A stretch of 64,000 bases of DNA, from contig CAYPBP010000001.1 in the NCBI GenBank assembly GCA_964408995.1, positions 74,823-138,822 on the forward strand. Reading direction: 5' to 3'. Numbering within the stretch: position 1 is the stretch's first letter; each line of letters opens with the position of its first letter. Below, in pieces: positions 13,091 through 36,755 of this stretch. The notes below the pieces were generated by a model, which did not search any database, was not told the origin of the DNA, and saw only the letters and a list, made by a program, of their open reading frames with translations. The translations under genes were made by a program, and so were the position numbers. Source of the stretch: an uncultured Gammaproteobacteria bacterium. GTDB taxonomy: Bacteria > Patescibacteriota > Microgenomatia > UBA12405.

Positions 13091-13097
13091 TTTTAAC

Positions 13098-14381: not shown

Positions 14382-14411
14382 ATTTGTATTATATAACTAA
14401 ATATTTTTTAC

Positions 14412-15212: not shown

Positions 15213-15213
15213 A

Positions 15214-18144: not shown

Positions 18145-18172
18145 ACAAACAATTAAAATTTATACTATATAT

Positions 18173-18580
18173 TTAATCCCAAAAAAAATCATCTTCACTG
18201 TAATTCAATTTGAAAGTCATATACAAAAAATCTTCCTTAGTGTCATTAACAACTATATGTTTATCGAATGGTTCGACAACCAAAACATCATCAACTTCAA
18301 CATTTATTTTTTCTCCATTAATAATAAAATATCCATTTTTATTTAAAAAATAAAAAATTTCTGTTTGTATTTTATGAGAATGTGATTTCACTGTTTCTCC
18401 GGGTTCTATTTTAAGTTTTTGGACCAAACTTCCTTTTACTCCTAAATCTTCATCAGTCAAATAAACTTTTTTACTATATCCATCTTTCTTTAACCAACTA
18501 TTAGGCTCTGATTTAATTAATTTCATAAAATGAATTATACCAATATACGCTATAATACTTTCATGGCCCAAAACAATCAA
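18173..18580 (-). CDS. cupin domain protein
   Basis: GETVKSHSHKIQTEIFYFL...GEKI is a cupin beta-barrel motif. Confidence 0.45.
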   Translation of the reverse strand: MIVLGHESIIAYIGIIHFMKLIKSEPNSWLKKDGYSKKVYLTDEDLGVKGSLVQKLKIEPGETVKSHSHKIQTEIFYFLNKNGYFIINGEKINVEVDDVLVVEPFDKHIVVNDTKEDFLYMTFKLNYSEDDFFWD

Positions 18581-19885
18581 AACGAATTAGTCAGCAAAAT
18601 AGTTAGTCTTTGTAAAAGACGAGGAATAATTTTTCAAAATTCAGAAATATACGGCGGAGTCCAAGGTTTCTATGACTATGGTCCAATTGGATCATTAATG
18701 AAAATAAATTGGAAAAATATTTGGTGGACTGATAATGTTGTTAAACGCCGTGATGTGGTTGGTATTGACGGTTCAATCATTACTCACCCAACTGTCTGGC
18801 AAGCATCTGGCCATATCAAAAATTTTGCCGATATTATGGTCGAATGCAAATCTTGCCACAAAAGATTTCGTCCAGATTTGCTCGAAGATGATTCGAAATG
18901 TCCAGAATGTGGTGGTCAATTTACCGAAGGTCGAAAATATAATATTTTATTTGAAACTGAAATTGGTGTCATTGAAGGTGAAAAACAACATGCTTATCTA
19001 AGAGGAGAGGCTTGTCAAACTATTTATCTAGATTTTAAAAATATTGTCGATTCTTGCCGAGTTAAAATTCCTTTTGGTATTGCTCAAATTGGAAAAGCCT
19101 TTAGAAACGAAATCACTCCTAAAAATTTCCTTTATCGAACTCGTGAATTCGAACAATGGGACATTCAATATTTTGTTCATCCTTCTAAAATGGACGAATG
19201 GTACGAATATTGGAAAGAAAACAGAATGGAATGGTATAAAAAACTTTTCAATAATCCAGAAAATCTAAGATTTAGACAACACGAAAAAGATGAGTTAGCT
19301 TTTTATGCCAAAAAAGCTTTTGACATTGAATACAATGCTCCTTGGGGCTGGGCCGAAATGGAAGGAATTCATTGGCGCTCAGATTATGATTTAACTCAAC
19401 ACTCTAAATTTAGTGGTGAAGACCTAACTTATTTAGATCCAGTCACTCAAGAAAAATATCTTCCACACATCACTGAAACTTCTGGTGGAGTCGATCGTAG
19501 TTTCTTTTTTATGCTTCTAGATGCCTATAAAGAAGAAAAAAATGAATCAGGTGAAATTAGAACTGTTCTTCAAATTAAACCTCAAGTGGCTGCTTATAAA
19601 ATGGCCATTCTTCCTCTTGCTGCTAATAAACCAGAACTGATTGAAAAAGCTGAATCCATATACCAAACACTAAATACTAAATATTCAGTTGACTGGGACG
19701 ATTCTAGTAATATTGGTAAAAAATATCGTCGTCAAGATGAAATCGGAACTCCTTGGTGTTTAGTTGTTGATTATCAAACTATGGAAGACGACACTGTTAG
19801 TATTCGTGACCGAGACACCATGGAACAAATCAGAATAAAAAGCAAAGAAGTTGACAGTTGGTTAGAAAAACAGTTAAATAAGTAA
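18563..19885 (+). CDS. glyQS: glycine--tRNA ligase (alpha2 dimeric type)
   Basis: FQNSEIYGGVQGFYDYGPIGSLMKINWKNIWW is the class II GlyRS N-terminus. ATG at 18563 chosen as start. Confidence 0.9.
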   Translation: MAQNNQNELVSKIVSLCKRRGIIFQNSEIYGGVQGFYDYGPIGSLMKINWKNIWWTDNVVKRRDVVGIDGSIITHPTVWQASGHIKNFADIMVECKSCHKRFRPDLLEDDSKCPECGGQFTEGRKYNILFETEIGVIEGEKQHAYLRGEACQTIYLDFKNIVDSCRVKIPFGIAQIGKAFRNEITPKNFLYRTREFEQWDIQYFVHPSKMDEWYEYWKENRMEWYKKLFNNPENLRFRQHEKDELAFYAKKAFDIEYNAPWGWAEMEGIHWRSDYDLTQHSKFSGEDLTYLDPVTQEKYLPHITETSGGVDRSFFFMLLDAYKEEKNESGEIRTVLQIKPQVAAYKMAILPLAANKPELIEKAESIYQTLNTKYSVDWDDSSNIGKKYRRQDEIGTPWCLVVDYQTMEDDTVSIRDRDTMEQIRIKSKEVDSWLEKQLNK

Positions 19886-19886
19886 T

Positions 19887-20591
19887 ATGAAAAAAATAAT
19901 ACCTATCGTAATTGCAGTCGTTATTGTTATCTCTTTAATTTTATTTTTTGTATTGACTCGCGACAAAAAAACGACCACAAATCCAAATGCTAAAAATACC
20001 CAAGTTTCAAAAGAAATAGCATTAACAGCAGATGAATTACCAACTATTAGTCTTATTCCAAGAGCCGACGGTCATGAATTAAAATTTAAAGTAGCTAATA
20101 TCTCACCAAAATTTTCAACTGCCGAATACGAACTGATTTATACAGCAAAAGATGGTGAGCTAGAAATTGACAAAGGAGTCGGGGGCACTATAGAACTTGA
20201 TAGTAATAACTTTGAAAAAGATCTCTTGTTAGGCACTTCTAGCTGCACTAATGGCTGTAAATATAAATACGACGAAGGCATTGTTGGTGGAAATCTTACC
20301 TTAACTTTAACCACTGACAATAATGAATACTACACTTTTGAAACTCCCTTCGTTTTAAAAACATCAGCTGAAATTAATAAAGAAAAAGGCCTTAGCTTAA
20401 TTGAAGAAAACTTTTCTATTAAAGGCACTGTTACTAGTAAAAGTGACTTCTTTATCGCCATTAAAAATGCTAAACCAGTTTATTCAGTTTTTTCAAGTGG
20501 CAACGGTAACGGTAAAATTACCTCAATTGAACCAACCACTATCACTAAAACTAGTTTAACTTCTTTTGTTGGTGATTATCTTATTCCCTAA
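19887..20591 (+). CDS. hypothetical secreted/membrane-anchored protein
   Basis: N-terminal TM/signal. No family recognised. Confidence 0.35.
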   Translation: MKKIIPIVIAVVIVISLILFFVLTRDKKTTTNPNAKNTQVSKEIALTADELPTISLIPRADGHELKFKVANISPKFSTAEYELIYTAKDGELEIDKGVGGTIELDSNNFEKDLLLGTSSCTNGCKYKYDEGIVGGNLTLTLTTDNNEYYTFETPFVLKTSAEINKEKGLSLIEENFSIKGTVTSKSDFFIAIKNAKPVYSVFSSGNGNGKITSIEPTTITKTSLTSFVGDYLIP

Positions 20592-21476
20592 ATGGAATTT
20601 CATACCCCAGTTTTATTAAAAGAAACTATCGACCTTTTAAACGTCCAAAAAGACCATCTTTATATTGATGGCACCCTTGGTCATGGCGGTCACACTTTAG
20701 AAATTTTAAAAAATGGTGGTATAGTTTATGGCTTTGACCAAGACCCAAACAACCTAAAAATTGCTAAGAATAGAATTCAAGAAGCTGGTTTTGATAAACA
20801 GTTCTTTCCAATTCATGGCAATTTTAATCAATTAGAAAAAATTGTCACCACTAAAATCTTAAAAAAAGCTGATGGCTTACTAATTGATTTAGGCTTAAGT
20901 CAAAATCAACAAACAGCACAAGATAGGGGATTTTCTTTTAATGACAATAATTCTCTTGATATGCGTCTAGACCCAGAAAACCAAGAATTAACCGCCGAAG
21001 AAATTATTAATACTTATGACTATGACCAACTTTACGAAATTTTTAGCAAATATGGTCAAGAAGTCTACAGTAAACCAATAATTCTAAAAATAATAAGACA
21101 ACGCCAAAAATCACCAATTCAAACAGCCACCAGATTAGCTGATATTGTTAGAGAATTTTATAAAGAACGCCATATTAGATCAAAAATAGATCCTAGTACT
21201 AAAATATTTTTAAGTCTAAGAATTATTGTTAACGAGGAATTTAATAATTTAAAAGATATCCTAAATCAAAGTCTAAAAATTGTTAAACCAGATGCTAATG
21301 TTTGTATCATCACTTTCCATTCAGGTGAAGACAGGATTGTTAAACAATTTATCAAAGATAATTCTTTACAAAAGAAGATAATTGAAAATAAAAAACCAAT
21401 TAAAGCCAGCTTTGAAGAAATCAAAAAAAATCCTCTATCTCGCTCTGCCACCCTAAGATCTTATAGAATCGTATAG
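20592..21476 (+). CDS. rsmH: 16S rRNA (cytosine1402-N4)-methyltransferase
   Basis: HTPVLLKETIDLL...YIDGTLGHGGHT is the RsmH/MraW signature. It sits at the head of the dcw cluster. Confidence 0.9.
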   Translation: MEFHTPVLLKETIDLLNVQKDHLYIDGTLGHGGHTLEILKNGGIVYGFDQDPNNLKIAKNRIQEAGFDKQFFPIHGNFNQLEKIVTTKILKKADGLLIDLGLSQNQQTAQDRGFSFNDNNSLDMRLDPENQELTAEEIINTYDYDQLYEIFSKYGQEVYSKPIILKIIRQRQKSPIQTATRLADIVREFYKERHIRSKIDPSTKIFLSLRIIVNEEFNNLKDILNQSLKIVKPDANVCIITFHSGEDRIVKQFIKDNSLQKKIIENKKPIKASFEEIKKNPLSRSATLRSYRIV

Positions 21477-21488
21477 AATAGTATAAGG

Positions 21489-21746
21489 ATGTTAAACAAA
21501 CCATTTTTTTTAATTCTATTTTTATTAGTCATTATTCAAGTTCTCTTTTCCTTTTATTATTCTAGTGAAATCATTAATCAAAATAATTTAATAAACAAAA
21601 ATAAAACAATTCTAGAAACATTAGAAATAGAAAACCAAGACCTAGAAGAAAAATTTGCTTCAGCATCTTCACTAAGACAAATTGAATCTTCTATTAACCA
21701 AAAAAATTACATTAATTTAAAAGAAAAATTAAATCTTCAAAATTAA
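21489..21746 (+). CDS. ftsL: FtsL-like small membrane cell-division protein
   Basis: 85 aa with one TM and a coiled-coil, located between rsmH and ftsI. Called by position and topology. Confidence 0.4.
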   Translation: MLNKPFFLILFLLVIIQVLFSFYYSSEIINQNNLINKNKTILETLEIENQDLEEKFASASSLRQIESSINQKNYINLKEKLNLQN

Positions 21747-21747
21747 A

Positions 21748-23400
21748 GTGTTAAAACAAAGATCAAAAATATTATCTATCACTCTAACTTTTTGTTTTGT
21801 TGTTGTTTCTTTTAGACTTTTTTATTGGCAAATAATAAAAGGTTATGAATTAAGTGAAAAAGCCAAAAACCAAACTTACAAACTAGAAAAAATAATCCCT
21901 AAACGAGGTCAAATATATTCATCGGACAATTTTCCTTTAGCTTTAAACAAAACTAGTTACCAGCTTTCCATTTACAAACCAAATTTAAAAGATAACTTAG
22001 ATAATGTTATTAATAATATCGACCAAGTTGTCCCCAATTTCAAACTTGAAAATAATATATCAATCGATAATATAAAGAATAATCCCAATCAAAAATGGAT
22101 GACTTTTAACTCTCTTTTAAATGAATTTCAGAAAGAACAATTAGAGCTCCCTGGTATTGAATTTCAAAAAATTGAAAAAAGATATTACCCAGAAGAACCA
22201 ATGGCCAAAGATATTATCGGTATAATTGGAAAAAACTATGAAGGTTCACCAATTGGCTATGGGGGACTTGAAGCTTTTTATCAAAAAAAACTAAAGGGTA
22301 AAACTGGTTTTGTTTGGGCTCCGCAAGATGCCGTTGGAAAAACCGTTTTAAACAAAAAAAGTTGGAGTTCTGAATCAGTAAGTGGTAGAAACATTTTTAC
22401 TTATATTAATCGCAGTGCTCAATTTTATGTTGAAAAATTACTTAAAGAAGGTATCACTCAATTTTCAGCTGATTCTGGATCGATAACAGTTATAGATCCC
22501 AAAACTGGAGCTATTATCGCCATGGCTTCTTTGACTAGCACTAGTTCGGCCACACCTAGTTCCAATATCAGAAACCCAGCTATTTCTGATCTATTTGAAC
22601 CAGGCTCAATTTTTAAACCAATTATAGTTTCTATGGCACTCGACGCCAAATCAATTGACACTGATTACATTTGCACCCAATGTGATCGACCAAATGTAAT
22701 TGGTAAAGATAACATCAGTAACTGGGATGGGGCACTTCACCCTAACTCCAGTCTTCAAGATATTATAAAAAATTCTGATAATATCGGCATGAGTCATATT
22801 ATTAGTAAACTTGGTCTTAAAAATTTTTTAAGTTATTATCAAAAACTTGGTCTTAGTCAAAAAACCGGTATCGATCTTCAAGGAGAATCTAAAGCATCTT
22901 TAAAAACGAAATGGCCAGACATAGACTTAGCCACTGCTTCCTTTGGTCAAGGTATAGTTGTCACTCAAATAAATATGCTTCAAGCTTTTAATGTCATTGC
23001 TAATGATGGTGTTTTGGTTAAACCAAAAGTTGCTAATTATTTTACCGAAGAAGATAAGATTATAAAAAATAAAAACCAAACAGAAACTCAAATTTTCAAA
23101 CCAGAAACTATAAAAAATATGAAAGACATTTTGAAATATTCAGTTGAAAATGGAGTTATTGCCAAACTAAAACCAAAAGATATTGAGGTTTGTGCCAAAA
23201 GTGGTACCGCCCAAATAGCTGTTAAAGGTAAATACTCTGATTCTTCAACCATTGCTTCTTACATTGGTTTTTCTCCATGTATTAACCCTAAGTTTACGAT
23301 GATTGTCACTATTAACAATCCTAAAACTTCTCCTTGGGGATCAAGTACGGCTGCCCCAATTTGGTATGATTTGGCCTCAAAGCTAAACTATTTGTTATAA
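21748..23400 (+). CDS. ftsI: penicillin-binding protein transpeptidase (FtsI/PBP2-like)
   Basis: N-terminal TM, a dimerisation domain, and a transpeptidase KSGTA (KTG-type) motif. Confidence 0.8.
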   Translation: MLKQRSKILSITLTFCFVVVSFRLFYWQIIKGYELSEKAKNQTYKLEKIIPKRGQIYSSDNFPLALNKTSYQLSIYKPNLKDNLDNVINNIDQVVPNFKLENNISIDNIKNNPNQKWMTFNSLLNEFQKEQLELPGIEFQKIEKRYYPEEPMAKDIIGIIGKNYEGSPIGYGGLEAFYQKKLKGKTGFVWAPQDAVGKTVLNKKSWSSESVSGRNIFTYINRSAQFYVEKLLKEGITQFSADSGSITVIDPKTGAIIAMASLTSTSSATPSSNIRNPAISDLFEPGSIFKPIIVSMALDAKSIDTDYICTQCDRPNVIGKDNISNWDGALHPNSSLQDIIKNSDNIGMSHIISKLGLKNFLSYYQKLGLSQKTGIDLQGESKASLKTKWPDIDLATASFGQGIVVTQINMLQAFNVIANDGVLVKPKVANYFTEEDKIIKNKNQTETQIFKPETIKNMKDILKYSVENGVIAKLKPKDIEVCAKSGTAQIAVKGKYSDSSTIASYIGFSPCINPKFTMIVTINNPKTSPWGSSTAAPIWYDLASKLNYLL

Positions 23401-23414
23401 TCAAATACTAGAAA

Positions 23415-24716
23415 ATGATACAGAAAATTAAAAACAACTTCTGGCATCTGCCTAAAAACTTTTTATTGAATATTAAATACGGTTTTCCCTCCAAAAAACT
23501 TATTTTAATTGGCATCACCGGCACAGATGGTAAAACTACCACTTGTACTCTTATTCATGAAATTTTAAGGAAATCTGGTATAAAAGCAGGTTTAATCAGC
23601 ACTATTTGTGCCAAGATTGAAGATAAAGAAATAAGCACTGGTTTACACACCACTTCTCCAGATCCAAGTCTAATTCAAAAAATTTTTATTGATATGATAA
23701 AAGCTGGTGTCACCCACGTTGTTTGTGAAGTAACTTCTCATGCTTTAGATCAAAATCGTTTTTTTGGTTGTAAATTCGAAGTTTCTGGTATCACTAATGT
23801 TTCCCATGAACATATGGATTACCATAAAACCATGACCAATTATATAAATGCTAAAGCTAAACTTTTTTCCATGTCAAAAAGTGCTATTTTAAATAAAGAT
23901 GATCAATCTTTTAATTTAATTAAAAAACAAATCAAAGTTCCCTTTAAAACATTCAGTATCAAAGATGATTCTGATTATCAAGCCAAAAAAATTAAATTAG
24001 ACGAAAATTCACTTAGTTTTGAAGTTAATGATCAAAAATTCATCACCGATAGTAACCAAGAATATCAAGTCTATAATATTTTATTAACTCTCGGCATTTG
24101 TCAAAAATTAAAAATAGATACTAACATAATTCAAGAAGTTATCAAAAAATTTCCCGAAACCAGAGGTCGACGTGAAGAAGTTGAGAATAATCTTAAGATA
24201 AAAACTATTATTGATTTTGCTCATACTCCAAACGCTCTATCTTCATCACTATCATCACTTAAAAAAACAACTAAAGGAAATCTTGTCGTTATTTTTGGAG
24301 CTACCGGAGGTAGAGACCAAAGTAAAAGGCCTAAAATGGGTGAAGTTGTTTCCAATATAGCCAATATTGCCATAATTACTTCAGATGATACTCGAAATGA
24401 AAAGATAGAAAACATTAATAAACAAATAATTAGTGGTATAGATCAAAAAAAATCAGAACTAATTGATCATCAAGAAATTAAAAATAAAAAACATCTTCAA
24501 AAAATAATTGAATTATCAAAACATAAATTTGTTTATTTTAATGTTCCCAATCGTCAAGATGCTTTCACTTTAGCTGTCAAACTAAGTCAACCTAGTGACA
24601 CTATTATTGCTTGTGGCAAAGGACACGAAAAAACTATCCTTCATGGCAATACTGAATATCCTTGGTCTGAAGCAGAAGCTTTTAGAACTGCTTTTAGACT
24701 TAGAAAAAATAAGTAA
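23415..24716 (+). CDS. murE: Mur ligase, probably UDP-MurNAc-L-Ala-D-Glu:diamino-acid ligase
   Basis: LIGITGTDGKTTT is the Mur-ligase P-loop. It follows ftsI, as murE does in dcw clusters. Confidence 0.65.
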   Translation: MIQKIKNNFWHLPKNFLLNIKYGFPSKKLILIGITGTDGKTTTCTLIHEILRKSGIKAGLISTICAKIEDKEISTGLHTTSPDPSLIQKIFIDMIKAGVTHVVCEVTSHALDQNRFFGCKFEVSGITNVSHEHMDYHKTMTNYINAKAKLFSMSKSAILNKDDQSFNLIKKQIKVPFKTFSIKDDSDYQAKKIKLDENSLSFEVNDQKFITDSNQEYQVYNILLTLGICQKLKIDTNIIQEVIKKFPETRGRREEVENNLKIKTIIDFAHTPNALSSSLSSLKKTTKGNLVVIFGATGGRDQSKRPKMGEVVSNIANIAIITSDDTRNEKIENINKQIISGIDQKKSELIDHQEIKNKKHLQKIIELSKHKFVYFNVPNRQDAFTLAVKLSQPSDTIIACGKGHEKTILHGNTEYPWSEAEAFRTAFRLRKNK

Positions 24717-24717
24717 T

Positions 24718-25314
24718 ATGAGTCAATTCAATATAAAAAACGATCAAAATATAGATAATAATTATCAAGCTGGTTTTCTTCCCCAAAGAAATGACAAGAA
24801 CTTATTTTATTTTCAAAGCAGTTGCCGTTCTAATTTAAACAACTTTAAGCTTAGCTCTGAGAATCGTCGAATTATTAATAAAACAGATAATTTTACTTTT
24901 GAAAAAATTGCCATCAATAATTTTGATTACAACTTTAAAATTCAAAAAGAAATTAACACTTGGGTAAAAAATTTAAAGTGGGATTTTCCTATAAGTTCAA
25001 TTAAAAACGTTTTTACTAATCATATTTTCAATTATGTTTATGTTTGGAAAAATGAGAATAATCAAATAATTGCTTATTCTCTCTGTTATTTTTCCCAAAA
25101 GATAAGTCACATTGCTTATGTTTTTTATAACCCAGATTGTGCTCATGGAAATTTACCAATCAGACTTGTCCTTCAAACTATTATTGATAGTCAACAATTA
25201 GGGCTTGAATATTGTTATTTAGGTCGTTTCTCAAAAGAAACTGGTTATTACAAAAGAAACATGCCTGGTTTTGAATATTTCGAAAATCAAAACTGGATTA
25301 AATATGAAAAATAA
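24718..25314 (+). CDS. Bpt/Ate1-like aminoacyl-tRNA--protein transferase family (GNAT fold) protein
   Basis: C-terminal YLGRFSKETGYYKRNMPGFEY resembles the ATE_C/Bpt motif (GYY...YK..F.P.E). Start set at ATG 24718, just after the murE stop. Confidence 0.4.
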   Translation: MSQFNIKNDQNIDNNYQAGFLPQRNDKNLFYFQSSCRSNLNNFKLSSENRRIINKTDNFTFEKIAINNFDYNFKIQKEINTWVKNLKWDFPISSIKNVFTNHIFNYVYVWKNENNQIIAYSLCYFSQKISHIAYVFYNPDCAHGNLPIRLVLQTIIDSQQLGLEYCYLGRFSKETGYYKRNMPGFEYFENQNWIKYEK

Positions 25315-25322
25315 ATTAATTT

Positions 25323-25358
25323 TATACTTAATACTTAATACTAAATACTAAATACTTT
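25323..25358. repeat. heptamer tandem repeat (TAATACT/AAATACT)n, intergenic, upstream of murC
   Basis: TATACTTAATACTTAATACTAAATACTAAATACT. Confidence 0.5.
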
Positions 25359-25359
25359 T

Positions 25360-26733
25360 ATGCATATACACATCTTAGGAATTGCTGGAACCATGACCGC
25401 CTCTCTGGCTGTAGCCCTTCAAAAAGAAGGTCACACCATCACTGGTTCTGATCAAGACAAAATTTATCCACCAGTAAGCACTATTTTAAAAAAAGCTAAT
25501 ATAGATATAAATTCTACTAAGATAAATAAAAATATAGATTTAGCTATAATCGGTTCTTCTTTTTCTAGTTTTCAAAAAACTAAAGAAGAATTTGAACAAA
25601 TTAAAAAACTAAAAATCAAATATATTTCAGCAAGCGTTTTTATTGCTCAAAATTTAATCAAAGAAAATTCTATTCTTATTGCTGGGACTTATGGCAAAAC
25701 CACTATCTCATCTTTAGTCTCTTGGGTTTTTAATCAATCAAATCTAAATCCCAATTATATGTTTGGTGGAGAAGCTATTAATCGCTTTCCAGCCACTAAC
25801 ATTTCATCCTCAGATTGGTCAATAATCGAAGCTGATGAATCAATTCATGGTTTAGATACTAAAGCCAAATTTCTTTATTACCCAGTTAAATACTTATTAT
25901 TAACCAGTGCCGATTGGGAACATAAAGATTCTTATAAAACTGAAATCGACAATTTTAATGCCTTTAAAGAATTGATTACCAATATCCAAAAAGATGGAAT
26001 TTTATTTATAAATTCCAATGGTTTTCATACCAAAGAATTAAGTCTTTATTCAAATTCAAAAATTATTACTTACAATTCCCCAACATCTGACTATTTTATT
26101 AAAAATATAAAAATTAAAAAGAATTACACTCTTTTAAATATTAGTACACCAAGGGAAATTATCCAAATTAAAACCAAGTTAATTGGTGATTTTAATTTTG
26201 AAAATATTTTAGCTGCCATTGCCATTACTGATACTTTTAATTTAAAACTAACCAACATCAAAAAAGCTGTTTTAAGTTTTAAAGGAATCAAACGTCGAAT
26301 TGAAAATGTCTCAACTAAAAATAATATTTTAATATTTGATGATTTTGCCCAATCAGCCAACCGAGTAGAATCAACCCTAAAAGCTATTCATTCTCACTTC
26401 CCTAAAAAAAATATTAAAGTTTTATACCAAGCTCATGCTTCTTTTATTCAATATAAAGAAAGTCTAAAAGATTTTAAAAATGCTTTTTTAAAAGCATCCC
26501 AAGTAGTTTTAACTCAATTAAACTATCAAAAAAATATAGATAAAAATCAACGAACTACAGTTAAAGATTTTAAAGAAACTATCGGAAACAAACTTGTATA
26601 TTTACCAACCGATAAAGAAGTCGTTGAGTTTTATAAAAAAAACCTAAACAAAAATGATGTTTTGATAAACATGAGTTCTGGTGGCTTTTATGGAAATAAA
26701 ATGATTAAATCTATTATCAACTCTTTAAAATAA
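25360..26733 (+). CDS. murC: Mur ligase, MurC/Mpl-like
   Basis: MHIHILGIAGTMTASLAVAL..GHTITGSD matches the MurC/Mpl N-terminus, and AGTYGKTT is the P-loop. Confidence 0.65.
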   Translation: MHIHILGIAGTMTASLAVALQKEGHTITGSDQDKIYPPVSTILKKANIDINSTKINKNIDLAIIGSSFSSFQKTKEEFEQIKKLKIKYISASVFIAQNLIKENSILIAGTYGKTTISSLVSWVFNQSNLNPNYMFGGEAINRFPATNISSSDWSIIEADESIHGLDTKAKFLYYPVKYLLLTSADWEHKDSYKTEIDNFNAFKELITNIQKDGILFINSNGFHTKELSLYSNSKIITYNSPTSDYFIKNIKIKKNYTLLNISTPREIIQIKTKLIGDFNFENILAAIAITDTFNLKLTNIKKAVLSFKGIKRRIENVSTKNNILIFDDFAQSANRVESTLKAIHSHFPKKNIKVLYQAHASFIQYKESLKDFKNAFLKASQVVLTQLNYQKNIDKNQRTTVKDFKETIGNKLVYLPTDKEVVEFYKKNLNKNDVLINMSSGGFYGNKMIKSIINSLK

Positions 26734-26736
26734 AAT

Positions 26737-28065
26737 ATGCCCAAATATATAATCAACGGTGGTAAAGAATTAAAAGGTGAAGTTTCTATAAGAGGAGCTA
26801 AAAATGCCAGTTTTAAGCAAGTAATTGCTTCAATGCTAACGGACCAAAAAGTCATTTTAAATAACGTACCTCAAATATCAGATGTAAAAATTACTACCAG
26901 TATTGCCAAAAGTCTTGGTTGTAATGTCCAGCAAACTGGGGAACATGGTCTTGAATTAACAACCCAAAAAATCACCAATTCTGTTGTCCCAACTGGAACT
27001 GGAGAAAAATCTAGAACTTCTTTTATGTTTGCCGCTCCATTATTAACCAGAACCGGCAGTGCTATTGTCCCAGTCCCAGGTGGAGATAAATTAGGTGACC
27101 GACCACTAAATCGTCTTTTTGATTGTTTTTCTAAAATGAACATTAAAACTGTTGAATCAGAAAAAACAATAACTTTTAATACTGACAAAATTGTAGGAAC
27201 TCATTACACTTTTTCAAAACCATCACACACTGTAACTGAAGTAGTTTTAATGACCGCAGCCCTGGCCCAGGGTGAAACCATTCTTGATAATGCCGCTCTA
27301 GAACCAGAAATTGATGACTTAATTTTAATGTTAAATAATATGGGTGCCAAAATTCAAAGAGATACTGCCAATGAAAAAAGAATTATAATTCAAGGAGTTT
27401 CTTCCCTAAAAGGTGTCCAACACGACATAATCTGTGACCGCAATGAAATAATAACTTTTGCTTGTGCTGCTTTGGCGACCAAGGGTTCTATTTGTATTTT
27501 AAGAGTCAAACCAGAAATTGTTAGTACTTTTTTAGAAACTATAAAAACCATGGGGGCTGAAGTAAGAACTGGTAAAGATGAACTCTGTGTCAAATGGGTG
27601 AAGCCGTTAACTGGTGTCAACATTGAAACTGGCCCAGAACCTATGTTTATGACCGATTGGCAGGCTATTTTTACAGTTCTTTTAAGCCAAACTGTGGGTT
27701 GTAGCTCAATTATTGAAAGAGTCTATCCAAACCGATTTCAACATATAGAAAACTTAATAAATATGGGAGTAAAAGTAAAATTTTTCAATCCAGAAATAGC
27801 TAACCCAGATGATTATTACCAATTTAATAAAGAAAGTGATCGACCAGAATACTTTCATGGAGTTAAAATTTACGGACCAAGCAAGCTTAAACCTACTAAT
27901 TTTACTATCAATGATCTTCGATCCGGAGCTTGTGTCACTATAGCCGCCCTAACAGCACCAGGTGAATCAGTTATTAATGGTGTTGAATATATTGAAAGAG
28001 GCTATGAAAAACTGGCCGAACGTCTTTGGTCTTTAGGTGCTAATATAGAGTATATAAAAACCTAA
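26737..28065 (+). CDS. murA: UDP-N-acetylglucosamine 1-carboxyvinyltransferase
   Basis: INGGKELKGEVSIRGAKNA N-terminus and EPT-fold length. Confidence 0.9.
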   Translation: MPKYIINGGKELKGEVSIRGAKNASFKQVIASMLTDQKVILNNVPQISDVKITTSIAKSLGCNVQQTGEHGLELTTQKITNSVVPTGTGEKSRTSFMFAAPLLTRTGSAIVPVPGGDKLGDRPLNRLFDCFSKMNIKTVESEKTITFNTDKIVGTHYTFSKPSHTVTEVVLMTAALAQGETILDNAALEPEIDDLILMLNNMGAKIQRDTANEKRIIIQGVSSLKGVQHDIICDRNEIITFACAALATKGSICILRVKPEIVSTFLETIKTMGAEVRTGKDELCVKWVKPLTGVNIETGPEPMFMTDWQAIFTVLLSQTVGCSSIIERVYPNRFQHIENLINMGVKVKFFNPEIANPDDYYQFNKESDRPEYFHGVKIYGPSKLKPTNFTINDLRSGACVTIAALTAPGESVINGVEYIERGYEKLAERLWSLGANIEYIKT

Positions 28066-28069
28066 TTTT

Positions 28070-29104
28070 ATGATGCAATTATATCTAGGACTCCTACTTT
28101 TTTCATTTTTAATTACTAGTATTTTAGTAGTTCCATTTATCAATCTGCTTTATAAACTAAAATTTCAACGCCAACTTCAAAAAACAACTGATTTTCAAAA
28201 CAATAGAACTCCTATTTTTGATAAATTTCATAATCAAAAACAAGGTACACCTGTTGGTGGGGGTTTATTAGTTATTGTTTCTGTCTGTATTATTTTTGCC
28301 TTTCTTTTCCCAATTTTAAAGTTTTCTAACCTTTTTATTTCATCTAACTACAATATAACTCACGAATTAACTATTTTATTTTTTACCTTTATTAGTTTTG
28401 GGTTACTAGGTCTTTACGATGATATTTATAAATTCTTTGGTTTTAGTAAAACTGGTTTCTTTGGTCTAAAAATGTTTTATAAATTAGTTTTACAACTAAT
28501 TTTAGCTTTAATTATTTCTTCAATGATTTATTTTCAACTAGGTACTGATTTCATTTACATTCCTTTCTTAGGCATCATTAAACTAGGAATTTTCTTTATC
28601 CCTATTTCCACTCTTATCATTGCTGGTTTTGCTAATTTCTTTAATATTACCGACGGTCTAGATGGTCTTTCCTGTGGTTTATTAATGATTTCTCTCTTTG
28701 CTTTTTGGATACTAGCCAGCACTTCAATGGATACAGTCATTTCATCATTTCTTGCTCTCTGGATTGGCGCTTTAATCGCCTTTTTATATTTCAATGTTCA
28801 TCCGGCTAGAATTTGGTTAGGAGATGTTGGGGCCCTATCTTTTGGTGCCACTTTTGCAGTCATTGCTCTTTTGCTTGGCAAAATAGTTCCTTTAATTATT
28901 GTTGGAGCTCCTTTCCTAGTCGAAGGACTTTCCAGTGCCATTCAAATTCTTTCAAAAAAATTCTTAAAAAGAAAAATATTTCCAGCTGCTCCAATTCATT
29001 TAACTCTTCAACACCTTGGTTGGGAAGAAGATAAAATTGTTTTTAGGGCTTGGCTAGCTGGTATTATGTTAGCTATATTTGGACTATGGTTGGGAATAAA
29101 TTAA
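28070..29104 (+). CDS. mraY: phospho-N-acetylmuramoyl-pentapeptide transferase
   Basis: Polytopic, with the MraY motifs ITDGLDGL and GDVGALSFGA. Confidence 0.9.
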   Translation: MMQLYLGLLLFSFLITSILVVPFINLLYKLKFQRQLQKTTDFQNNRTPIFDKFHNQKQGTPVGGGLLVIVSVCIIFAFLFPILKFSNLFISSNYNITHELTILFFTFISFGLLGLYDDIYKFFGFSKTGFFGLKMFYKLVLQLILALIISSMIYFQLGTDFIYIPFLGIIKLGIFFIPISTLIIAGFANFFNITDGLDGLSCGLLMISLFAFWILASTSMDTVISSFLALWIGALIAFLYFNVHPARIWLGDVGALSFGATFAVIALLLGKIVPLIIVGAPFLVEGLSSAIQILSKKFLKRKIFPAAPIHLTLQHLGWEEDKIVFRAWLAGIMLAIFGLWLGIN

Positions 29105-29628
29105 CACAACTTAAAAAAGAAATTGAACATTATATTGGTTTGCCATATAGTAAAAATATTCTTAAAGATGGCAAAATAATCAAAGAACAATTTCTTGGGG
29201 GTAAGGGCAACTGTCGTCAAATTGCTACTGAAACCATTAGACTTGCCCAAAAACAAAAAATAGACCTACTCAAATTAACTAATCAAGAATTCTACAATTT
29301 TCAAAAAAAGAATCATCTTGGTATCGATTGTTCTGGTCTTGTTTGCCAACTACTCAATTTTTATTTTGAAACCAATTTAAATCCACGTAAAAACTCGGCT
29401 AACATGCTCACTTCTGCTCCACTTTCAAAAGAAATAAAAGAAGAAGATATTAAAACAGGGGATTTAGTTAGACAAAAAAACGGTCATCACGTTTTATTTA
29501 TAATTGAAAAACAAGGCAATATTATCAAATACGTTGATAGCTCTCGTGAAAACAGAGGAGTCAAATACGGTCAGTTTGACCTTCAAGACAAAACCTTTAA
29601 ACACCTTGGTTTCTATCGATTAAAATAA
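29086..29628 (+). CDS. NlpC/P60-family cysteine peptidase-like protein
   Basis: GIDCSGLVCQ catalytic Cys motif followed by a downstream His (GHHVLFI). The ORF track starts at 29050, inside mraY; a later start is more likely. Confidence 0.5.
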   Translation: MVGNKLTQLKKEIEHYIGLPYSKNILKDGKIIKEQFLGGKGNCRQIATETIRLAQKQKIDLLKLTNQEFYNFQKKNHLGIDCSGLVCQLLNFYFETNLNPRKNSANMLTSAPLSKEIKEEDIKTGDLVRQKNGHHVLFIIEKQGNIIKYVDSSRENRGVKYGQFDLQDKTFKHLGFYRLK

Positions 29629-29640
29629 ATTCACAAATGT

Positions 29641-29662
29641 ACCCCCGCAGCTGCGGGGGTAC
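29641..29662. terminator. perfect 20-bp GC-rich palindrome (ACCCCCGCAGCTGCGGGGGT), a candidate bidirectional terminator between the convergent P60 gene and the lysW-like gene
   Basis: The perfect hairpin is visible directly in the sequence. It is GC-rich in a roughly 28% GC background, and the flanks are moderately T-rich on both strands. Confidence 0.45.
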
Positions 29663-29676
29663 ATTTAATTAATTAC

Positions 29677-29835
29677 TTATTTTTCTTCAACCAACTCTCT
29701 ATATTTCAAAGGATCTAAAGATATAATTTCCACTTCAGTGCCACATTCAAGGCATTCAACTATATCTCCAACCATAGTTTCTTTTTGTAATTTAATTTCA
29801 GATTTACAATCTGGGCAAACAACTTTATCGTTCAT
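29677..29835 (-). CDS. LysW-like zinc-ribbon amino-group carrier protein (52 aa)
   Basis: This ORF is absent from the six-frame track because it is under 60 aa. Translation: MNDKVVCPDCKSEIKLQKETMVGDIVECLECGTEVEIISLDPLKYRELVEEK. The CPxC...GD-VEC-EC...E-E pattern matches LysW/ArgW, e.g. Thermus ...GELVVCEDCGAELEVVGLDPL..., and the tail is acidic. Confidence 0.55.
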   Translation of the reverse strand: MNDKVVCPDCKSEIKLQKETMVGDIVECLECGTEVEIISLDPLKYRELVEEK

Positions 29836-29875
29836 GTTTTATTAAAATTAATAACTAGTATAATTAAGCTATTAT

Positions 29876-30697
29876 ATGGCAAACACACCTTTAATTAAAT
29901 TAGAGAATATATATTTCAAAAGAGAAGATTTAAATGAAACTGGCTCAGCCAAAGATAGGGCTATTATTTTTCAAATAGAAAATCTAAAAAAACAAGGCTA
30001 TAAACAAGCTGTAATTTCTAGTACCGGCAACGCCGCCATCTCCGCTTCCTATTTTTGCCATCTAAATAATATCGAATTAACTGTCTTTTTATCTCCCAAA
30101 GTCAACCAAAACAAATTAAACCTAATTAAAAAATACCCTTGCCAAATAATTTTTTCCAAAAAAGCCATCAGTGACGCTATAAAATTTTCTAAAAAAAATA
30201 ACAGTTATCTGCTTCGCCAATCAACCGATCCTAGTGCCTTAATTGGTTATCAAGAAATTGGTAAAGAATTATTAAAAGAATTACCTCAAATCACCAGTGT
30301 TTTTGTTCCAGTTGGTAGTGGTGCTACTCTTTTAGGAATTTCCCAATCCTTAAATCCATCAGTTAAAATTTTTGCCATTCAACCAGCCAGTAATTGCCCT
30401 TTATCACAATATTTTGATAAAGATTATGAAAAAGAAACAGAAAATATCACTGACGCCATTTCTGTAAAATACCTACCTCTTAAACCACTTATTATTTCTA
30501 CCATCAAAAATAGCCAAGGAAATGGATTAATTGTTAAAAACAAAAATATTTTAGAAGCTCAAAAAGAACTAGAAACAAATCAAATTAAAACTTCTCTTGA
30601 AGGAGCCATGGCTTTTGCTGGCCTAAAAAAAGCTATTGATAACAAATTAGAAATAGGCAATTACCCAGTCATACTTTTAACCGGATGTCAAAGATAA
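29876..30697 (+). CDS. PLP-dependent fold-type II enzyme (threonine synthase/cysteine synthase-like)
   Basis: KREDLNETGSAKDR is the PLP-lysine motif N-P-T-G-S-x-K-D-R. STGNAAIS and VGSGATLLGI are the phosphate-binding loops. It is short at 273 aa. Confidence 0.6.
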   Translation: MANTPLIKLENIYFKREDLNETGSAKDRAIIFQIENLKKQGYKQAVISSTGNAAISASYFCHLNNIELTVFLSPKVNQNKLNLIKKYPCQIIFSKKAISDAIKFSKKNNSYLLRQSTDPSALIGYQEIGKELLKELPQITSVFVPVGSGATLLGISQSLNPSVKIFAIQPASNCPLSQYFDKDYEKETENITDAISVKYLPLKPLIISTIKNSQGNGLIVKNKNILEAQKELETNQIKTSLEGAMAFAGLKKAIDNKLEIGNYPVILLTGCQR

Positions 30698-31797
30698 ATT
30701 TAGAAACTATTATTAACGAGTCTCCATATGTTTTTTATTTTTTAGTTGTCGATAAGTTTTTAGACATCAGTTTACCTCAACTTAAAAATTTTCATAAAAT
30801 TTATCTTTCTGATTATCCATCTATAAAAATTAAAAACAGTGGCAAACTTTTGGCAAACCAACAGGTTAAAGAATATATAAAATTAACTTCAAAGTCATTA
30901 ACTCCAGTTATAATTCCCTTTAAACCATCGGCAAAAATTGATATTTTATGTCAAAAAAATAATTGGATTAACGCCAGTAATCCTGGCCCAATTAATCGAT
31001 TTTTAGAAGATAAAATTAAATTTGCTAAACTCTGTCAAAATAAAAAACTCCCAACCCTTCCTTTCTCTCTTGACACTTTTTCTGAAAATAACTTTCTAAA
31101 ATATCAAAAAAAATACAATCAAAAATTAGTTATTCAAACTCATTTTGGTTGGGCAGGGAATAGTACTTTTTCAGCCTCATCTTGGGATGAAATAAAAGAT
31201 AAGATAGAAATCGACACTATGGTTAAATATAGCCCATTTATTGAAGCTTCCTATTCTCTTTTAAACAATTGCTGTCTAACTAAATTTGGATTAATTCAAA
31301 GTCCAATAGCTCTGCAATACACTGGCATCAAACCTTTCACTAAAAATCCTTTTACTACTGTTGGTCGTCAATGGCCTTGTTTTGCTCCACCAAAAATAAT
31401 TAAAAAAACTCAAAAAATAACTCAAAAGTTTTCTAAAATTTTAAAAGAAATTGGCTATAAAGGCTTCTTTGGACTCGACTTTTTAATTAATAAAAACCAA
31501 GTCTTTTTATTAGAATGCAACCCCAGGTTAACTGCTTCTTTTGCTTTTTATACCCAACTAGAACAACTTCAAAACATTAATCCTCTTTTCTATTTTCATT
31601 TAGTCGAATTTTTAAAAATTAATTATCGTCCAAATATAAAATTCGAACAATCTCGTTTTAAAAATAAAAAAATTATTGGTTCTGAACTTACAATTAAAGA
31701 TAAAAATAATAATACCAAAAAGAAGCTTAATTTCTTTTATCCTTTGTCTCTCACCAACAATCCTATTTCTATTTCTCTAAATTTAAATGAAAAATAA
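30685..31797 (+). CDS. ATP-grasp family ligase of unknown specificity
   Basis: GFFGLDFLINKNQVFLLECNPRLTAS is an ATP-grasp C-terminal motif. It overlaps the PLP gene by 13 nt, so the two are likely translationally coupled. Confidence 0.55.
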   Translation: MSKINLETIINESPYVFYFLVVDKFLDISLPQLKNFHKIYLSDYPSIKIKNSGKLLANQQVKEYIKLTSKSLTPVIIPFKPSAKIDILCQKNNWINASNPGPINRFLEDKIKFAKLCQNKKLPTLPFSLDTFSENNFLKYQKKYNQKLVIQTHFGWAGNSTFSASSWDEIKDKIEIDTMVKYSPFIEASYSLLNNCCLTKFGLIQSPIALQYTGIKPFTKNPFTTVGRQWPCFAPPKIIKKTQKITQKFSKILKEIGYKGFFGLDFLINKNQVFLLECNPRLTASFAFYTQLEQLQNINPLFYFHLVEFLKINYRPNIKFEQSRFKNKKIIGSELTIKDKNNNTKKKLNFFYPLSLTNNPISISLNLNEK

Positions 31798-32962
31798 TAA
31801 ATCACCATTATTATTTTTAGTCTTTAGTTTAATTTTCATTGGCATTATTTTTATTTCCGTATCTTCACTTGGTGAAGCTAGTTCCACTGTTGGCGATAAA
31901 TTTTTATTCATAAAAAAACAAGCATTTTGGCTTACCTTGGGAATAATTTGTTATTACATAACTTCAAAACTAAAAATCGAAACTATAAAAAAATTTGCTT
32001 TCATTTTTTATGCTATTTCCATATTAGGATTAATATTAGTATTAATTCCTGGTTTTGGTAACGAAGCTCTAGGCGCCAAACGTTGGCTTAATTTAGGTTT
32101 TACCAGTATTCAGCCATCAGAAATAGTAAAACTTAGCTCTATTATTTATTTTTCTTATCTTTTTGCCAAAGAAGAAAAACGTCATATAAAAAATCTTATT
32201 TTTTATTTAGGAATTCCTTTTCTTTTGATTATAGTTGAGCCAAATTTAAGTACTGCTATTTTAGTTTCAGCCATCGTTGGTTCAATTTATTATCTTTCGG
32301 GTGGTGAAGTATTTCCATTATTAGGTATGGTTGTTCTAATTTTATTATTAAGCATTCCTCTAATCTTTTTATCTCCCTATCGATCAGCCAGATTAAAAAC
32401 TTTTTTAGAACCACAACAAAACCAAAGTGGTGCTTCCTATCATAGTAATCAAATCATACTAACCCTTTCCTCTGGAGGACTTTTTGGAAAAGGTTTTGCC
32501 AACTCAGACCAAAAATATAAATTTTTACCCAAAATATCAACTGACTCAATTCTGGCCGTAATTGGTGAAGAAATTGGTTTTGTCGGTATTTTTGTAGTTC
32601 TTTTAATTTATCTTTCTTTGATAAATTATCTTCTTAAATTTTCTCAAACTATAGACGATCCATTTCAAAGTTTATTAGTCTCGGGAACTGCTTGTTGGAT
32701 TGCTTATCAAAGCTTAATAAATATTTCTGCTATTGCCGCTCTAATTCCTTTAACTGGAGTTCCTCTTCCTTTTATTTCCTATGGTGGATCATCTCTTCTA
32801 ACTCTTTTTATTGCCATTGGTTTGGTTAGAAATGTCGAAAAAAATCAAAAAACACTGATATACTTAAAGGGTGATCAGCACCAAAATCAAAAAAACAATC
32901 ATCATCACCGGGACTCATCTCACTCCAGCCCTAGAACTCATCAGACAATTACAAAAAGATAA
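31787..32962 (+). CDS. ftsW: SEDS-family cell division protein FtsW
   Basis: Polytopic FtsW/RodA-family protein lying between mraY and murG. It has a His-rich C-terminal tail. Confidence 0.8.
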   Translation: MKNNKSPLLFLVFSLIFIGIIFISVSSLGEASSTVGDKFLFIKKQAFWLTLGIICYYITSKLKIETIKKFAFIFYAISILGLILVLIPGFGNEALGAKRWLNLGFTSIQPSEIVKLSSIIYFSYLFAKEEKRHIKNLIFYLGIPFLLIIVEPNLSTAILVSAIVGSIYYLSGGEVFPLLGMVVLILLLSIPLIFLSPYRSARLKTFLEPQQNQSGASYHSNQIILTLSSGGLFGKGFANSDQKYKFLPKISTDSILAVIGEEIGFVGIFVVLLIYLSLINYLLKFSQTIDDPFQSLLVSGTACWIAYQSLINISAIAALIPLTGVPLPFISYGGSSLLTLFIAIGLVRNVEKNQKTLIYLKGDQHQNQKNNHHHRDSSHSSPRTHQTITKR

Positions 32963-35566: not shown

Positions 35567-35570
35567 AATT

Positions 35571-36752: not shown

Positions 36753-36755
36753 AAA

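Follow-up and report, generated by a model that had tools for sequence, protein, structure and literature searches.

A divergent Bpt/ATE1-like aminoacyl-tRNA transferase homologue in the mur gene cluster of CPR bacteria

The cell-wall operon and its gene between two Mur ligases

The window (the whole stretch of DNA analysed, 64,000 nucleotides in length) contains a cell-wall operon in which an ATG-started open reading frame at 24718..25314 on the + strand, encoding a transferase homologue of 198 amino acids, is flanked by two Mur ligase genes. A longer GTG-started frame (24595..25314, +) is also open at this locus, and the ATG at 24718 was taken as the start because the homologues, which are 196–209 amino acids long, begin with a common M-x-Q-F-N. 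Homologues numbered 558 in a set of 5.8 billion proteins, the best 120 of the 558 sharing 65–99% identity, and relatives at 53–75% identity were found at 80 species-level genome loci. Against 11 of these 80 loci the dN/dS of the gene ranged between 0.09 and 0.25, with dS saturated. The protein of roughly 198 residues that the initial annotation had proposed is therefore the product of a real gene under purifying selection; no membrane segment was detected in it.

The upstream neighbour is murE (23415..24716, +; TIGR01085 334 bits, cut-off 257), whose stop lies 2 nt before the transferase ATG and whose product lacks the N-terminal UDP-binding domain 1, its alignment to the TIGR01085 profile beginning only at profile position ~75–103 and its P-loop GTDGKTT standing at residue 35. 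The same N-terminal truncation was observed in other CPR MurE proteins. The specificity motif of MurE in the lineage of the window reads DDTR and retains the Arg of the DAP-type DNPR. The downstream neighbour, a MurC/Mpl-like ligase whose N-terminal domain is complete (25360..26733, +), is separated from the transferase end by 45 nt and is followed in the same operon by murA (26737..28065, +; Pfam EPSP_synthase) and mraY (28070..29104, +; Pfam Glycos_transf_4), which are syntenic in most related loci. MurE and MurF both lack UDP-binding domain 1, and the MurC-like ligase alone retains the N-terminal domain.

The partner ligase has the three-domain architecture of MurC and Mpl, including the UDP-binding N domain, and scored 236.8 bits against NCBIfam murC (cut-off 335) and 181 bits against mpl (cut-off 389), with identities of 21–28% to MurC and 21–32% to Mpl. 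HMM scores placed MurC over Mpl by 24–56 bits while tblastn scores favoured Mpl, and the altered amino-acid-binding motifs match neither, as the MurC motifs DDYGHHP and PH(R/T)(F/Y)(T/S)R and the Mpl motif EPRSNT are all changed. The initial annotation had located the gene between murE and murC; murE and a ligase do flank it, but the so-called murC is, judged by its sequence, a member of a separate MurC/Mpl-like clade.

Beyond mraY, an accessory block (29050..31797) occupies the usual slot of murD and comprises an NlpC/P60 gene (29050..29628, +; Pfam), a LysW-type zinc ribbon of 52 amino acids (29677..29835, −; PF21344, E 4e-13), a PALP enzyme (29876..30697, +; Pfam) and an ATP-grasp gene (30685..31797, +; Pfam), so that the LysW/ATP-grasp unit described earlier is indeed present. 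The block is kept in the related loci as well as in L166 and L175, and the ATP-grasp, NlpC and PALP genes also surround the transferase in the 'short-N' lineage. The LysW/PALP/ATP-grasp block was considered as a replacement for Ddl/MurF and rejected, as locus L175 carries both. Just upstream of the dcw cluster lies a glycyl-tRNA synthetase gene (18530..19885, +; Pfam tRNA-synt_2b and HGTP_anticodon), which was found upstream in 65 loci as well as in L081, L166 and L175, always adjoining recO. As a pointer to a Gly-tRNA donor this neighbour is weak: Microgenomates conserve the order recO-glyS-dcw, but the gene is missing from the Parcubacteria loci examined, and recO and glyS also adjoin each other in other bacteria, an ancient arrangement.

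Homology, fold and conserved residues

The Pfam profile ATE_C (PF04377) matched the 198-residue protein with 27.4 bits and E 5.6e-6 (gathering score 25), and the six NCBIfam arginyltransferase equivalog models gave 25–33 bits against cut-offs of 170–267. Alignment by hhalign of the CPR family profile with a genuine Bpt (A. baumannii WP_000844343.1, from an Acinetobacter record) reached a probability of 98.3% and E 1.5e-14 over 181 columns, at 18% identity. The AF2 model (pLDDT 89.8, pTM 0.87) found its best Foldseek matches in the PDB among the human, S. cerevisiae and K. lactis ATE1 structures (8tzv, 7wfx, 7tif, 8e3s; E 5e-9 to 1e-6, TMq 0.64–0.72), with the aminoacyl-phosphatidylglycerol synthase domains of MprF as the next-best neighbours (TMq about 0.5); all of these are aminoacyl-tRNA transferases. 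The ATE_C/Bpt resemblance noticed in the initial annotation is borne out by the ATE_C score above gathering, the hhalign match to Bpt and the first rank of ATE1 in Foldseek. Its broader comparison with the Ate1, Bpt and Fem families held for ATE_C and Bpt in the profiles and for ATE1 in the fold, but not for Fem, since FemAB (PF02388) gave no Pfam match at E<=1 and Fem structures were absent among the top 50 fold matches; ATE_N and Leu_Phe_trans, named alongside them, also gave no Pfam match at E<=1. No match was obtained for the DUF2156 (MprF-type) profile, and the likeness to MprF-type enzymes is at the level of fold only, the CPR protein having no membrane domain. Sequence searches of the PDB with the single protein and with the family profile returned nothing relevant and matched no ATE1 chain, and an exhaustive profile search, which gathered 229 clusters at E<1e-3, did not reach canonical Bpt. 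The protein is a divergent relative of Bpt/ATE1 and is non-canonical as a Bpt.

Homology to Bpt (A. baumannii WP_000844343.1 and V. vulnificus) extends over ~180 residues, from the GF motif to YLG...YK...P.E, between proteins of a similar size class that have in common a Tyr-Lys pair, a basic helix and an uncharged donor pocket. The C-terminal motif quoted in the initial annotation, YLGRFSKETGYYKRNMPGFEY (residues 167–187; 25216..25278, +), is present, carries the ATE_C signature YLG...YK..F.P.E and aligns to YLGYWVPHSAKMNYKSQYTPLE of Bpt. Within it lies the predicted catalytic pair Y178-K179 (25249..25254, +), equivalent to Y303-K304 of klAte1 and F304-K305 of FemX, aligned to the YK of Bpt and invariant both in 24 close homologues and in a CPR-wide alignment of 48 sequences. 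In klAte1, the substitutions K304A and Y303F kill activity, and this Lys equals K305 of FemX (PMC9351520). A conserved basic helix, S46-K55 (SSENRRIINK; 24853..24882, +), is equivalent to the alpha3 helix of ATE1, which binds tRNA (PMC9351520). The stretch is modelled by AF2 as a helix over residues 47–55, and its hhalign partner in Bpt is NSMQKKAWKR; the close family keeps S47, E48, N49, R50, R51 and K55 without exception, and for the E and the second R this invariance extends to the 48-sequence alignment of the wider family. The predicted donor pocket (I132, L150, T154, C166) is uncharged at positions that are also uncharged in the Leu-specific Bpt, unlike those of the Arg-specific ATE1, the acidic Arg-binding residue E277 of klAte1 being replaced by Thr.

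Other features of the known enzymes are lost or altered. The first ~45 residues of Bpt, including the N-terminal Cys, have no counterpart in the protein of the window, and at the four cysteines of the Bpt CHLCRQCLSC, which belong to ATE_N, the CPR family has P, Y, S and I. ATE1 is 2.5 times larger than the CPR protein, and its Cys/Fe-S or heme-related N-terminal module is absent from the latter. The GFRRSG position of Bpt reads GLLPQR, with an Arg nearby, and appears as GFLPYSG or GFVFTR in the wider family. In klAte1, R80 of this region binds the acidic N-terminal residue. With this acceptor-recognition motif of ATE1/Bpt altered, homology gives no guide to the acceptor chemistry. The Fem-family enzymes (FemX, FemA, FemB, MurM) are likewise aminoacyl-tRNA-dependent and of GNAT type, with a catalytic Lys following an aromatic residue as in the CPR protein, but they are two-lobed proteins of ~330–420 residues, about twice the size of the 198-residue protein.

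Distribution and gene neighbourhood across the CPR

The family is restricted to the CPR, where its roughly 2,000 sequence clusters come from Microgenomates, Parcubacteria and other Patescibacteria, and literature searches returned no description of it. At almost every locus examined, the transferase adjoins murE and/or the MurC-like ligase, which is its most constant partner. Where murE precedes it, the transferase start lies against the stop codon of murE or overlaps it. The order murE>transferase>murC-like was conserved in 80/80 genomes of the lineage of the window, which places the gene within the dcw cluster of related genomes, and the same triad was observed in other Microgenomates and in Nomurabacteria. 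In a further Patescibacteria lineage, the order was mraY>transferase>murC-like, with the MurC-like gene adjacent in 46/46 loci and mraY next to it on the upstream side in 43/47. The murC-like>transferase pair of a complete Kaiserbacteria genome stands alone, and at locus L174 a murE-transferase pair occurs with no MurC-like ligase nearby. Natural fusions of the transferase to the MurC-like ligase were detected in P0122/L166, L087 and L091, which are independent and fall in two subfamilies; in another family member the fusion partner is a PPDK_N/PEP-utilizer module. One Parcubacteria locus holds a separate FemAB-family gene in addition to the transferase.

The link to peptidoglycan precursors, seen here in the operon position and the Mur ligase fusions, is common to the CPR gene and the Fem family, but we know of no Fem gene that is embedded between murE and murC or that is coupled or fused to murC. 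The neighbours also differ from those of Bpt: the genuine Acinetobacter Bpt gene adjoins aat, whereas aat never adjoined the transferase at the loci examined. Neither clpS nor clpA nor clpP was found within the 64-kb window.

The cell-wall clusters of L081 and L175 include murA, murB, the murC-like gene, murE, ddl, murF and mraY, but murD was not found in them. No murD-like sequence was detected in the 64-kb window, in L001–L084, in L165 or in L166, all of them stretches of 12–64 kb. Probing with an approximate E. coli MurD sequence, used as a probe only, and with a CPR MurD-like protein showed, however, that one Patescibacteria lineage with the transferase/MurC-like pair has an adjacent MurD, with a MurD-type N domain, as well as MurE and MurF. 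The transferase as a general replacement for MurD is excluded, MurD-like genes adjoining it in that lineage.

Candidate roles in peptidoglycan synthesis

To our knowledge, Bpt/ATE1 enzymes are known only as modifiers of protein N-termini, and tRNA-dependent steps in peptidoglycan synthesis only from Fem-family enzymes. Because of its position in the cell-wall cluster and its occasional fusion to a Mur ligase, the CPR enzyme probably helps to build or decorate the wall peptide and does not tag proteins for degradation, and we place the probability that it is a peptidoglycan-dedicated aminoacyl-tRNA transferase at roughly 75%. Fem-type branching is the sole established task of aminoacyl-tRNA transferases in the synthesis of peptidoglycan (PMC2655667, PMC2922099). 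The initial annotation had suggested tRNA-dependent branching of the stem peptide here as well, a proposal that is strengthened by the synteny and the natural MurC-like fusions.

The account favoured here is that a soluble, single-domain transferase of the Bpt/ATE1 lineage would have been recruited in the CPR from protein N-terminal tagging to the cytoplasmic synthesis of peptidoglycan precursors, where its function would parallel that of FemX/MurM, with Bpt as the scaffold. The basic helix S46-K55 would dock a charged tRNA by its acceptor arm, the aminoacyl ester of this tRNA would sit in the uncharged pocket (I132, L150, T154, C166), a pocket that may suit small or neutral residues such as Gly, Ala or Ser, and Y178-K179 would stabilise the tetrahedral intermediate during attack by a free amino group of the muropeptide precursor. 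The most likely acceptor would be the side-chain amine of the diamino acid just added by MurE to the UDP-MurNAc-peptide, and MurE, the MurC-like ligase and the transferase may form a working complex. Taken as a whole, this account of a Bpt-derived, Fem-like transferase for the stem-peptide precursor is our best explanation, offered at somewhat short of an even chance, and the side-chain amine in particular, which is chosen by analogy with Fem, is put forward more tentatively still. Several points weigh against the Fem-like part. The DDTR motif of MurE retains the Arg of the DAP-type DNPR, and walls of the DAP type are as a rule directly cross-linked, with no branch; pairing with a ligase that acts before the precursor has a free amine would not be predicted for a side-chain transferase; and a Parcubacteria locus has its own FemAB-family gene.

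Should a peptidoglycan role be correct, the substrate range of ATE/Bpt enzymes would widen from proteins to cell-wall precursors, the walls of CPR bacteria would be predicted to contain a stem peptide that departs from the canonical form through branching or some other modification, and the 198-residue protein would serve as a model of a minimal ATE-type catalytic core without the ATE_N cysteines. The question also bears on the coupling of wall synthesis to the charged-tRNA pool in these CPR bacteria, which live as obligate symbionts and are unable to synthesise most amino acids.

Among the alternatives, the one that survives best, though it seems unlikely, is that the transferase forms a tRNA-dependent backbone bond in the stem peptide, coupled to the MurC/Mpl-like ligase, so that in Microgenomates and Parcubacteria the MurD step would be bypassed or assisted. 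In one version, the transferase would put the residue of position 1, such as L-Ala taken from Ala-tRNA, on the alpha-amine of glutamate or of a peptide with an N-terminal Glu, which is the acceptor class of Bpt/ATE1, and the ligase would then join the product to UDP-MurNAc; in the other, the ligase would acylate the amine of an Ala-tRNA held by the transferase. The constancy of the MurC-like partner and its fusion in two subfamilies point in this direction, as do the clusters of L081 and L175 with other mur genes but without murD, the lack of murD-like sequence in the window, L001–L084, L165 and L166, and the loss of UDP-binding domain 1 from MurE and MurF with its retention by the MurC-like ligase only. 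The ligase is, moreover, equidistant from MurC and Mpl, with motifs for the incoming amino acid that differ from both, and Mpl-type enzymes are able to ligate peptides (PMC3060825). On the other hand, MurC is favoured over Mpl in the HMM scores, the Arg-rich motif that serves Bpt/ATE1 for the acceptor has changed in the CPR family, the transferase of L174 accompanies murE with no MurC-like ligase nearby, and MurD, MurE and MurF occur together with the transferase/MurC-like pair in the Patescibacteria lineage mentioned above; the absence of murD concerns 12–64 kb stretches and not whole genomes, and a complete Microgenomates genome was reported with an 'essentially complete' peptidoglycan pathway (PMC7143001). 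If true, such a backbone reaction would lead to the universal cell-wall precursor without MurD and in part by way of tRNA; that the stem peptide of Microgenomates and Parcubacteria is indeed made in this partly tRNA-dependent, MurD-independent way, and not solely by the classical four Mur ligases, is a slightly slimmer prospect.

Comparably slim is the chance of a different acceptor, such as a hydroxyl or amine of a sugar nucleotide or lipid intermediate in the manner of MprF, or of a non-catalytic role as a tRNA-sensing subunit through which tRNA charging would regulate the first ligase of the stem peptide. The second rank of the MprF aminoacyl-lipid synthases among the structural neighbours and the mraY gene upstream in one lineage are consistent with the former, although the sequence and profile affinity is to Bpt and not to MprF, and the membrane segment is absent. 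Fusion to the MurC-like ligase would be compatible with a regulatory domain, and the PPDK_N/PEP-utilizer fusion shows that the domain is also combined with other partners; that the Tyr-Lys pair never varies in the alignments, and that purifying selection is strong along the entire protein, nevertheless argues for catalysis.

An ordinary N-degron enzyme, that is, a reduced Bpt adding Leu or another residue to N-terminal Asp/Glu for degradation by ClpS/ClpAP, would fit the homology to Bpt, the uncharged pocket and the annotation of the family by JGI pipelines as arginyl-tRNA--protein transferase, but is very improbable given the scores far below the NCBIfam equivalog cut-offs, the missing ATE_N cysteines and altered GFRRSG, the lack of an adjacent aat gene and of clpS, clpA and clpP in the window, and a fixed mur-gene position across deep CPR lineages which, together with fusion to a Mur ligase, such a function would hardly explain.

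Genomic setting and conservation of the putative transferase

On the + strand of the window, whose G+C content is 30.8%, a division/cell-wall (dcw) cluster was observed, which comprises mraW (20592..21476), a small ftsL-like ORF (21489..21746), ftsI (21748..23400), murE (23415..24716), the transferase ORF (24718..25314, 198 aa), a MurC/Mpl-like ligase (25360..26733), murA (26737..28065), mraY (28070..29104), an NlpC/P60 protein (29050..29628), a LysW-type zinc-ribbon ORF on the - strand (29677..29835), a fold-type II PLP (PALP) enzyme (29876..30697), an ATP-grasp enzyme (30685..31797), ftsW (31787..32962), murG (32871..33971), an ftsQ-like ORF (33958..34338), ftsA (34316..35566) and ftsZ (35547..36752). 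The cluster is otherwise complete, with no murD, murF, murB or ddl detected across the 64-kb window (1..64000). The ATG of the transferase lies 2 nt past the murE stop (TAAtATG), and the ORF, together with the C-terminal motif quoted in the initial annotation (residues 167-187), was confirmed.

The transferase is a real gene; 558 homologues were found in a collection of 5.8 billion proteins, the best 120 of which exhibit 65-99% identity and lengths of 196-209 aa and come from MAGs named Shapirobacteria or Woesebacteria. GTDB, sampled at one genome per species, yielded 80 loci with the transferase at 53-75% identity, and dN/dS against 11 of these ranges from 0.09 to 0.25, with synonymous sites saturated. 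The wider family comprises 1,568 clusters at E<=1e-3, with proteins of 215-275 aa from Microgenomates, Nomurabacteria, Kaiserbacteria and other Patescibacteria.

The gene order of the window lineage is GlyRS, a hypothetical gene, mraW, (ftsL), ftsI, murE, transferase, murC-like, murA, mraY, NlpC, lysW (-), PALP and ATP-grasp, and the placement between murE and a murC-like gene, which had been proposed from the window alone, recurs in 80/80 loci. Other Microgenomates (loci L081 and L175) display mraZ, mraW, ftsL, ftsI, murE, transferase, murC-like, murB, murA, ddl, murF and mraY; the Nomurabacteria locus L083 and locus L084 display murE, transferase and murC-like; L174 carries murE and then the transferase, with no MurC-like ligase found nearby; and L165, from a complete Kaiserbacteria genome, carries murC-like and then the transferase as an isolated pair. 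Another Patescibacteria lineage, marked by a short N-terminus (short-N; 80 metagenome loci), has the order ATP-grasp, (NlpC), mraY, transferase, murC-like and PALP, the MurC-like ligase adjoining or fused in 46/46 of the sufficiently long loci and mraY lying upstream of the transferase in 43 of 47.

Family assignment and functional residues

The initial annotation had placed the protein near Ate1, Bpt and Fem enzymes; at the profile level the ATE_C part of this claim stood, as the sole Pfam match (27.4 bits, gathering score 25), and no Pfam match to ATE_N, FemAB or Leu_Phe_trans was found in the transferase. NCBIfam arginyltransferase equivalogs scored 25-33 bits against cut-offs of 170-267, skipping the first 64-80 profile positions, and PDB sequence searches returned no relevant matches. 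Of 1.84 billion cluster representatives searched exhaustively with the profile, no more than 229 scored E<1e-3, and canonical Bpt was not reached; the family is a small one, clearly set apart.

In hhalign, a 48-sequence family profile aligned with the reference Bpt, a genuine one from Acinetobacter that is annotated as arginyltransferase and adjoins aat, at 98.3% probability (E 1.5e-14, 181 columns, Bpt residues 46-240); the match starts at the GF motif of ATE_N and ends with the C-terminal YLG...YK...P.E motif. The AlphaFold2 model (pLDDT 89.8, pTM 0.87) supported the Ate1/Bpt likeness, its best PDB matches being human, yeast and K. lactis ATE1 (E 5e-9 to 1e-6, query TM 0.64-0.72), followed by the tRNA-dependent synthase domains of MprF. 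Every aligned homologue has the pair Y178-K179, which corresponds to Y303-K304 of K. lactis ATE1 (klAte1), where mutants are inactive (PMC9351520), and to F304-K305 of FemX, and the basic helix SSENRRIINK is the counterpart of the tRNA-binding alpha3 helix. In contrast, the Bpt cysteines (CHLCRQCLSC) are replaced by P/Y/S/I, the N-terminal ~45 residues of Bpt are missing and GFRRSG reads GLLPQR. Since the functional residues are kept and these other features are lost or altered, the transferase is a predicted ATE/Bpt-like catalytic core, yet not a canonical member. By the mapping inferred from the hhalign register, the donor pocket is formed by I132, L150, T154 and C166 (klAte1 S255/S273/E277/Y289; Bpt A/A/Q/L), and as these are uncharged, the donor is predicted not to be Arg.

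Public pipelines name the protein hypothetical, GNAT acetyltransferase or arginyltransferase, and no description of the family was found in the literature searched. tRNA-dependent peptidoglycan enzymes (Fem) are already known; new is a probable one that derives from ATE/Bpt, sits among the dcw genes and is joined to a Mur ligase in some lineages.

Mur ligase partners and the candidate step

Two different subfamilies contain natural single-ORF fusions, in which the transferase is N-terminal and the MurC-like ligase follows. In a relative of the window lineage they form protein cluster P0122 (seven members, 630-654 aa, from ENA, JGI and NCBI), with a Pro/Ser-rich linker (PSPSVPSPSVPSPSTPS), and the fusion at L166:10001-11938 lies in a locus otherwise syntenic with the window; independent short-N fusions occur in L087 (696 aa, L087:9995-12082) and L091 (754 aa, L091:3180-5441). 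Together with the mur-gene contexts, the fusions argue strongly for a function in making peptidoglycan precursors, and a peptidoglycan-dedicated aminoacyl-tRNA transferase is the probable identity of the protein (roughly 75%).

The MurC-like ligases (the window copy and those of L081, L083, L084, L155 and L165) form a separate clade below both NCBIfam cut-offs, about as far from MurC (21-28% identity) as from Mpl (21-32%). DD(Y/F)(G/A)HHP of MurC/Mpl is replaced by DDFAQS or DDFAHS, and PH(R/T)(F/Y)(T/S)R of MurC or EPRSNT of Mpl by YQAHASF, FEPHASF, YQPRSSE or FEPNIGGR, so that neither the MurC nor the Mpl motif for the incoming amino acid or peptide is present, suggesting that the incoming substrate may have changed.

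As to the step, the nucleophile that aminoacyl-tRNA transferases acylate is an amine or, for MprF, a hydroxyl, and in classical precursors the sole free amine is on the side chain of residue 3. Fem-like side-chain addition is tentatively favoured, at somewhat below even odds, on this background and because the gene is translationally coupled to murE and, in L174, paired with murE alone. Four observations do not fit it comfortably and suggest instead that a backbone bond is made with tRNA and the resulting peptide passed to the MurC/Mpl-like ligase, or that MurD is bypassed. The MurC-like ligase is the most constant partner and also a fused one; the DAP-type motif of MurE still has its Arg (DDTR, EDPR or DDPR), except in the short-N lineage, where it reads EDPY; UDP-binding domain 1 is missing from every CPR MurE examined (401-465 aa; window 23415..24716, L081:6769-8004, L083:6706-8004, L084:6533-7885, L175:8799-10004 and L149:17010-18305(-)), where alignments begin at profile position 65-103 and the P-loop lies at aa ~35, and likewise from the MurF-like proteins of L081 (401 aa) and L175 (409 aa), an N domain being kept only by the MurC-like (UDP-binding domain 1) and MurD-like ligases; and the L081 and L175 clusters, otherwise complete with murB, ddl and murF, contain no murD. 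A backbone bond is nevertheless unlikely, as a MurD-like gene encoding a MurD-type N domain neighbours the pair in the short-N lineage, HMMs rank MurC above Mpl for the partner ligase, the absence of murD covers stretches of 12-64 kb only, and an essentially complete peptidoglycan pathway is described for a complete Microgenomates genome (PMC7143001). Slightly less probable again is another acceptor or a regulatory role, and a classical N-degron enzyme is highly improbable, the contexts and fusions being strong evidence against so generic a role.

Accessory and neighbouring gene sets

The slot between mraY and ftsW (29050..31797), usually occupied by murD, holds the NlpC/P60, LysW-type, PALP and ATP-grasp block. 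Its carrier-like LysW-type protein (52 aa, opposite strand) ends in ...VEEK, not the EDWGE of LysW, and the small PALP enzyme matched Thr synthase/dehydratase and SbnA models weakly. The block recurs at L166:14446-17921 and L175:17701-20804, in L175 alongside ddl and murF, and in the short-N lineage the transferase has the ATP-grasp, NlpC and PALP genes of the block as neighbours. Within 28070..29628, which spans mraY and NlpC/P60, the NlpC/P60 ORF (TTG at 29050) shares 55 nt with the mraY 3' end, an overlap that tblastn coordinates also show for nearly every related locus; either the real start lies further downstream or the overlap itself is conserved. Directly 5' of the dcw cluster (window 18530..20591; L081, L166, L175; throughout Microgenomates) lie recO, glycyl-tRNA synthetase and a conserved 230-270-aa protein with a hydrophobic N-terminal stretch and no Pfam match; mraZ was found in L081, L166 and L175 and not in the window.

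In protein cluster P0181 (L176:10001-12430, 809 aa; a single cluster with one member), a family member is fused to a PPDK_N and PEP-utilizers (phosphotransferase-type) module, outside a dcw cluster and with a Mur_ligase_M/C gene 4.4 kb upstream. In Nomurabacteria, L083:2124-5816 (-) encodes a FemAB-family protein, a DegT aminotransferase and a MurF-like ligase whose 115-aa N-terminus is unrelated, divergent from murE-transferase-murC-like and possibly a second precursor-modifying module.

Elsewhere in the window, two glycan-assembly gene sets (354..11398 and 44164..46840) contain several GT2 and GT4 glycosyltransferases, two Wzy_C/O-antigen-ligase-like proteins, a Bac_transf priming transferase, a nucleotidyl transferase and a 656-aa DUF4012 protein, and a second FtsW/RodA paralogue lies at 38288..39283. 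A purine-synthesis block (11975..18144), with an AIR-synthase-related protein, a PurT-like ATP-grasp protein, GATase_5 and a 976-aa FGAM-synthase-like protein, is notable because the lineage is usually described as having no nucleotide biosynthesis.
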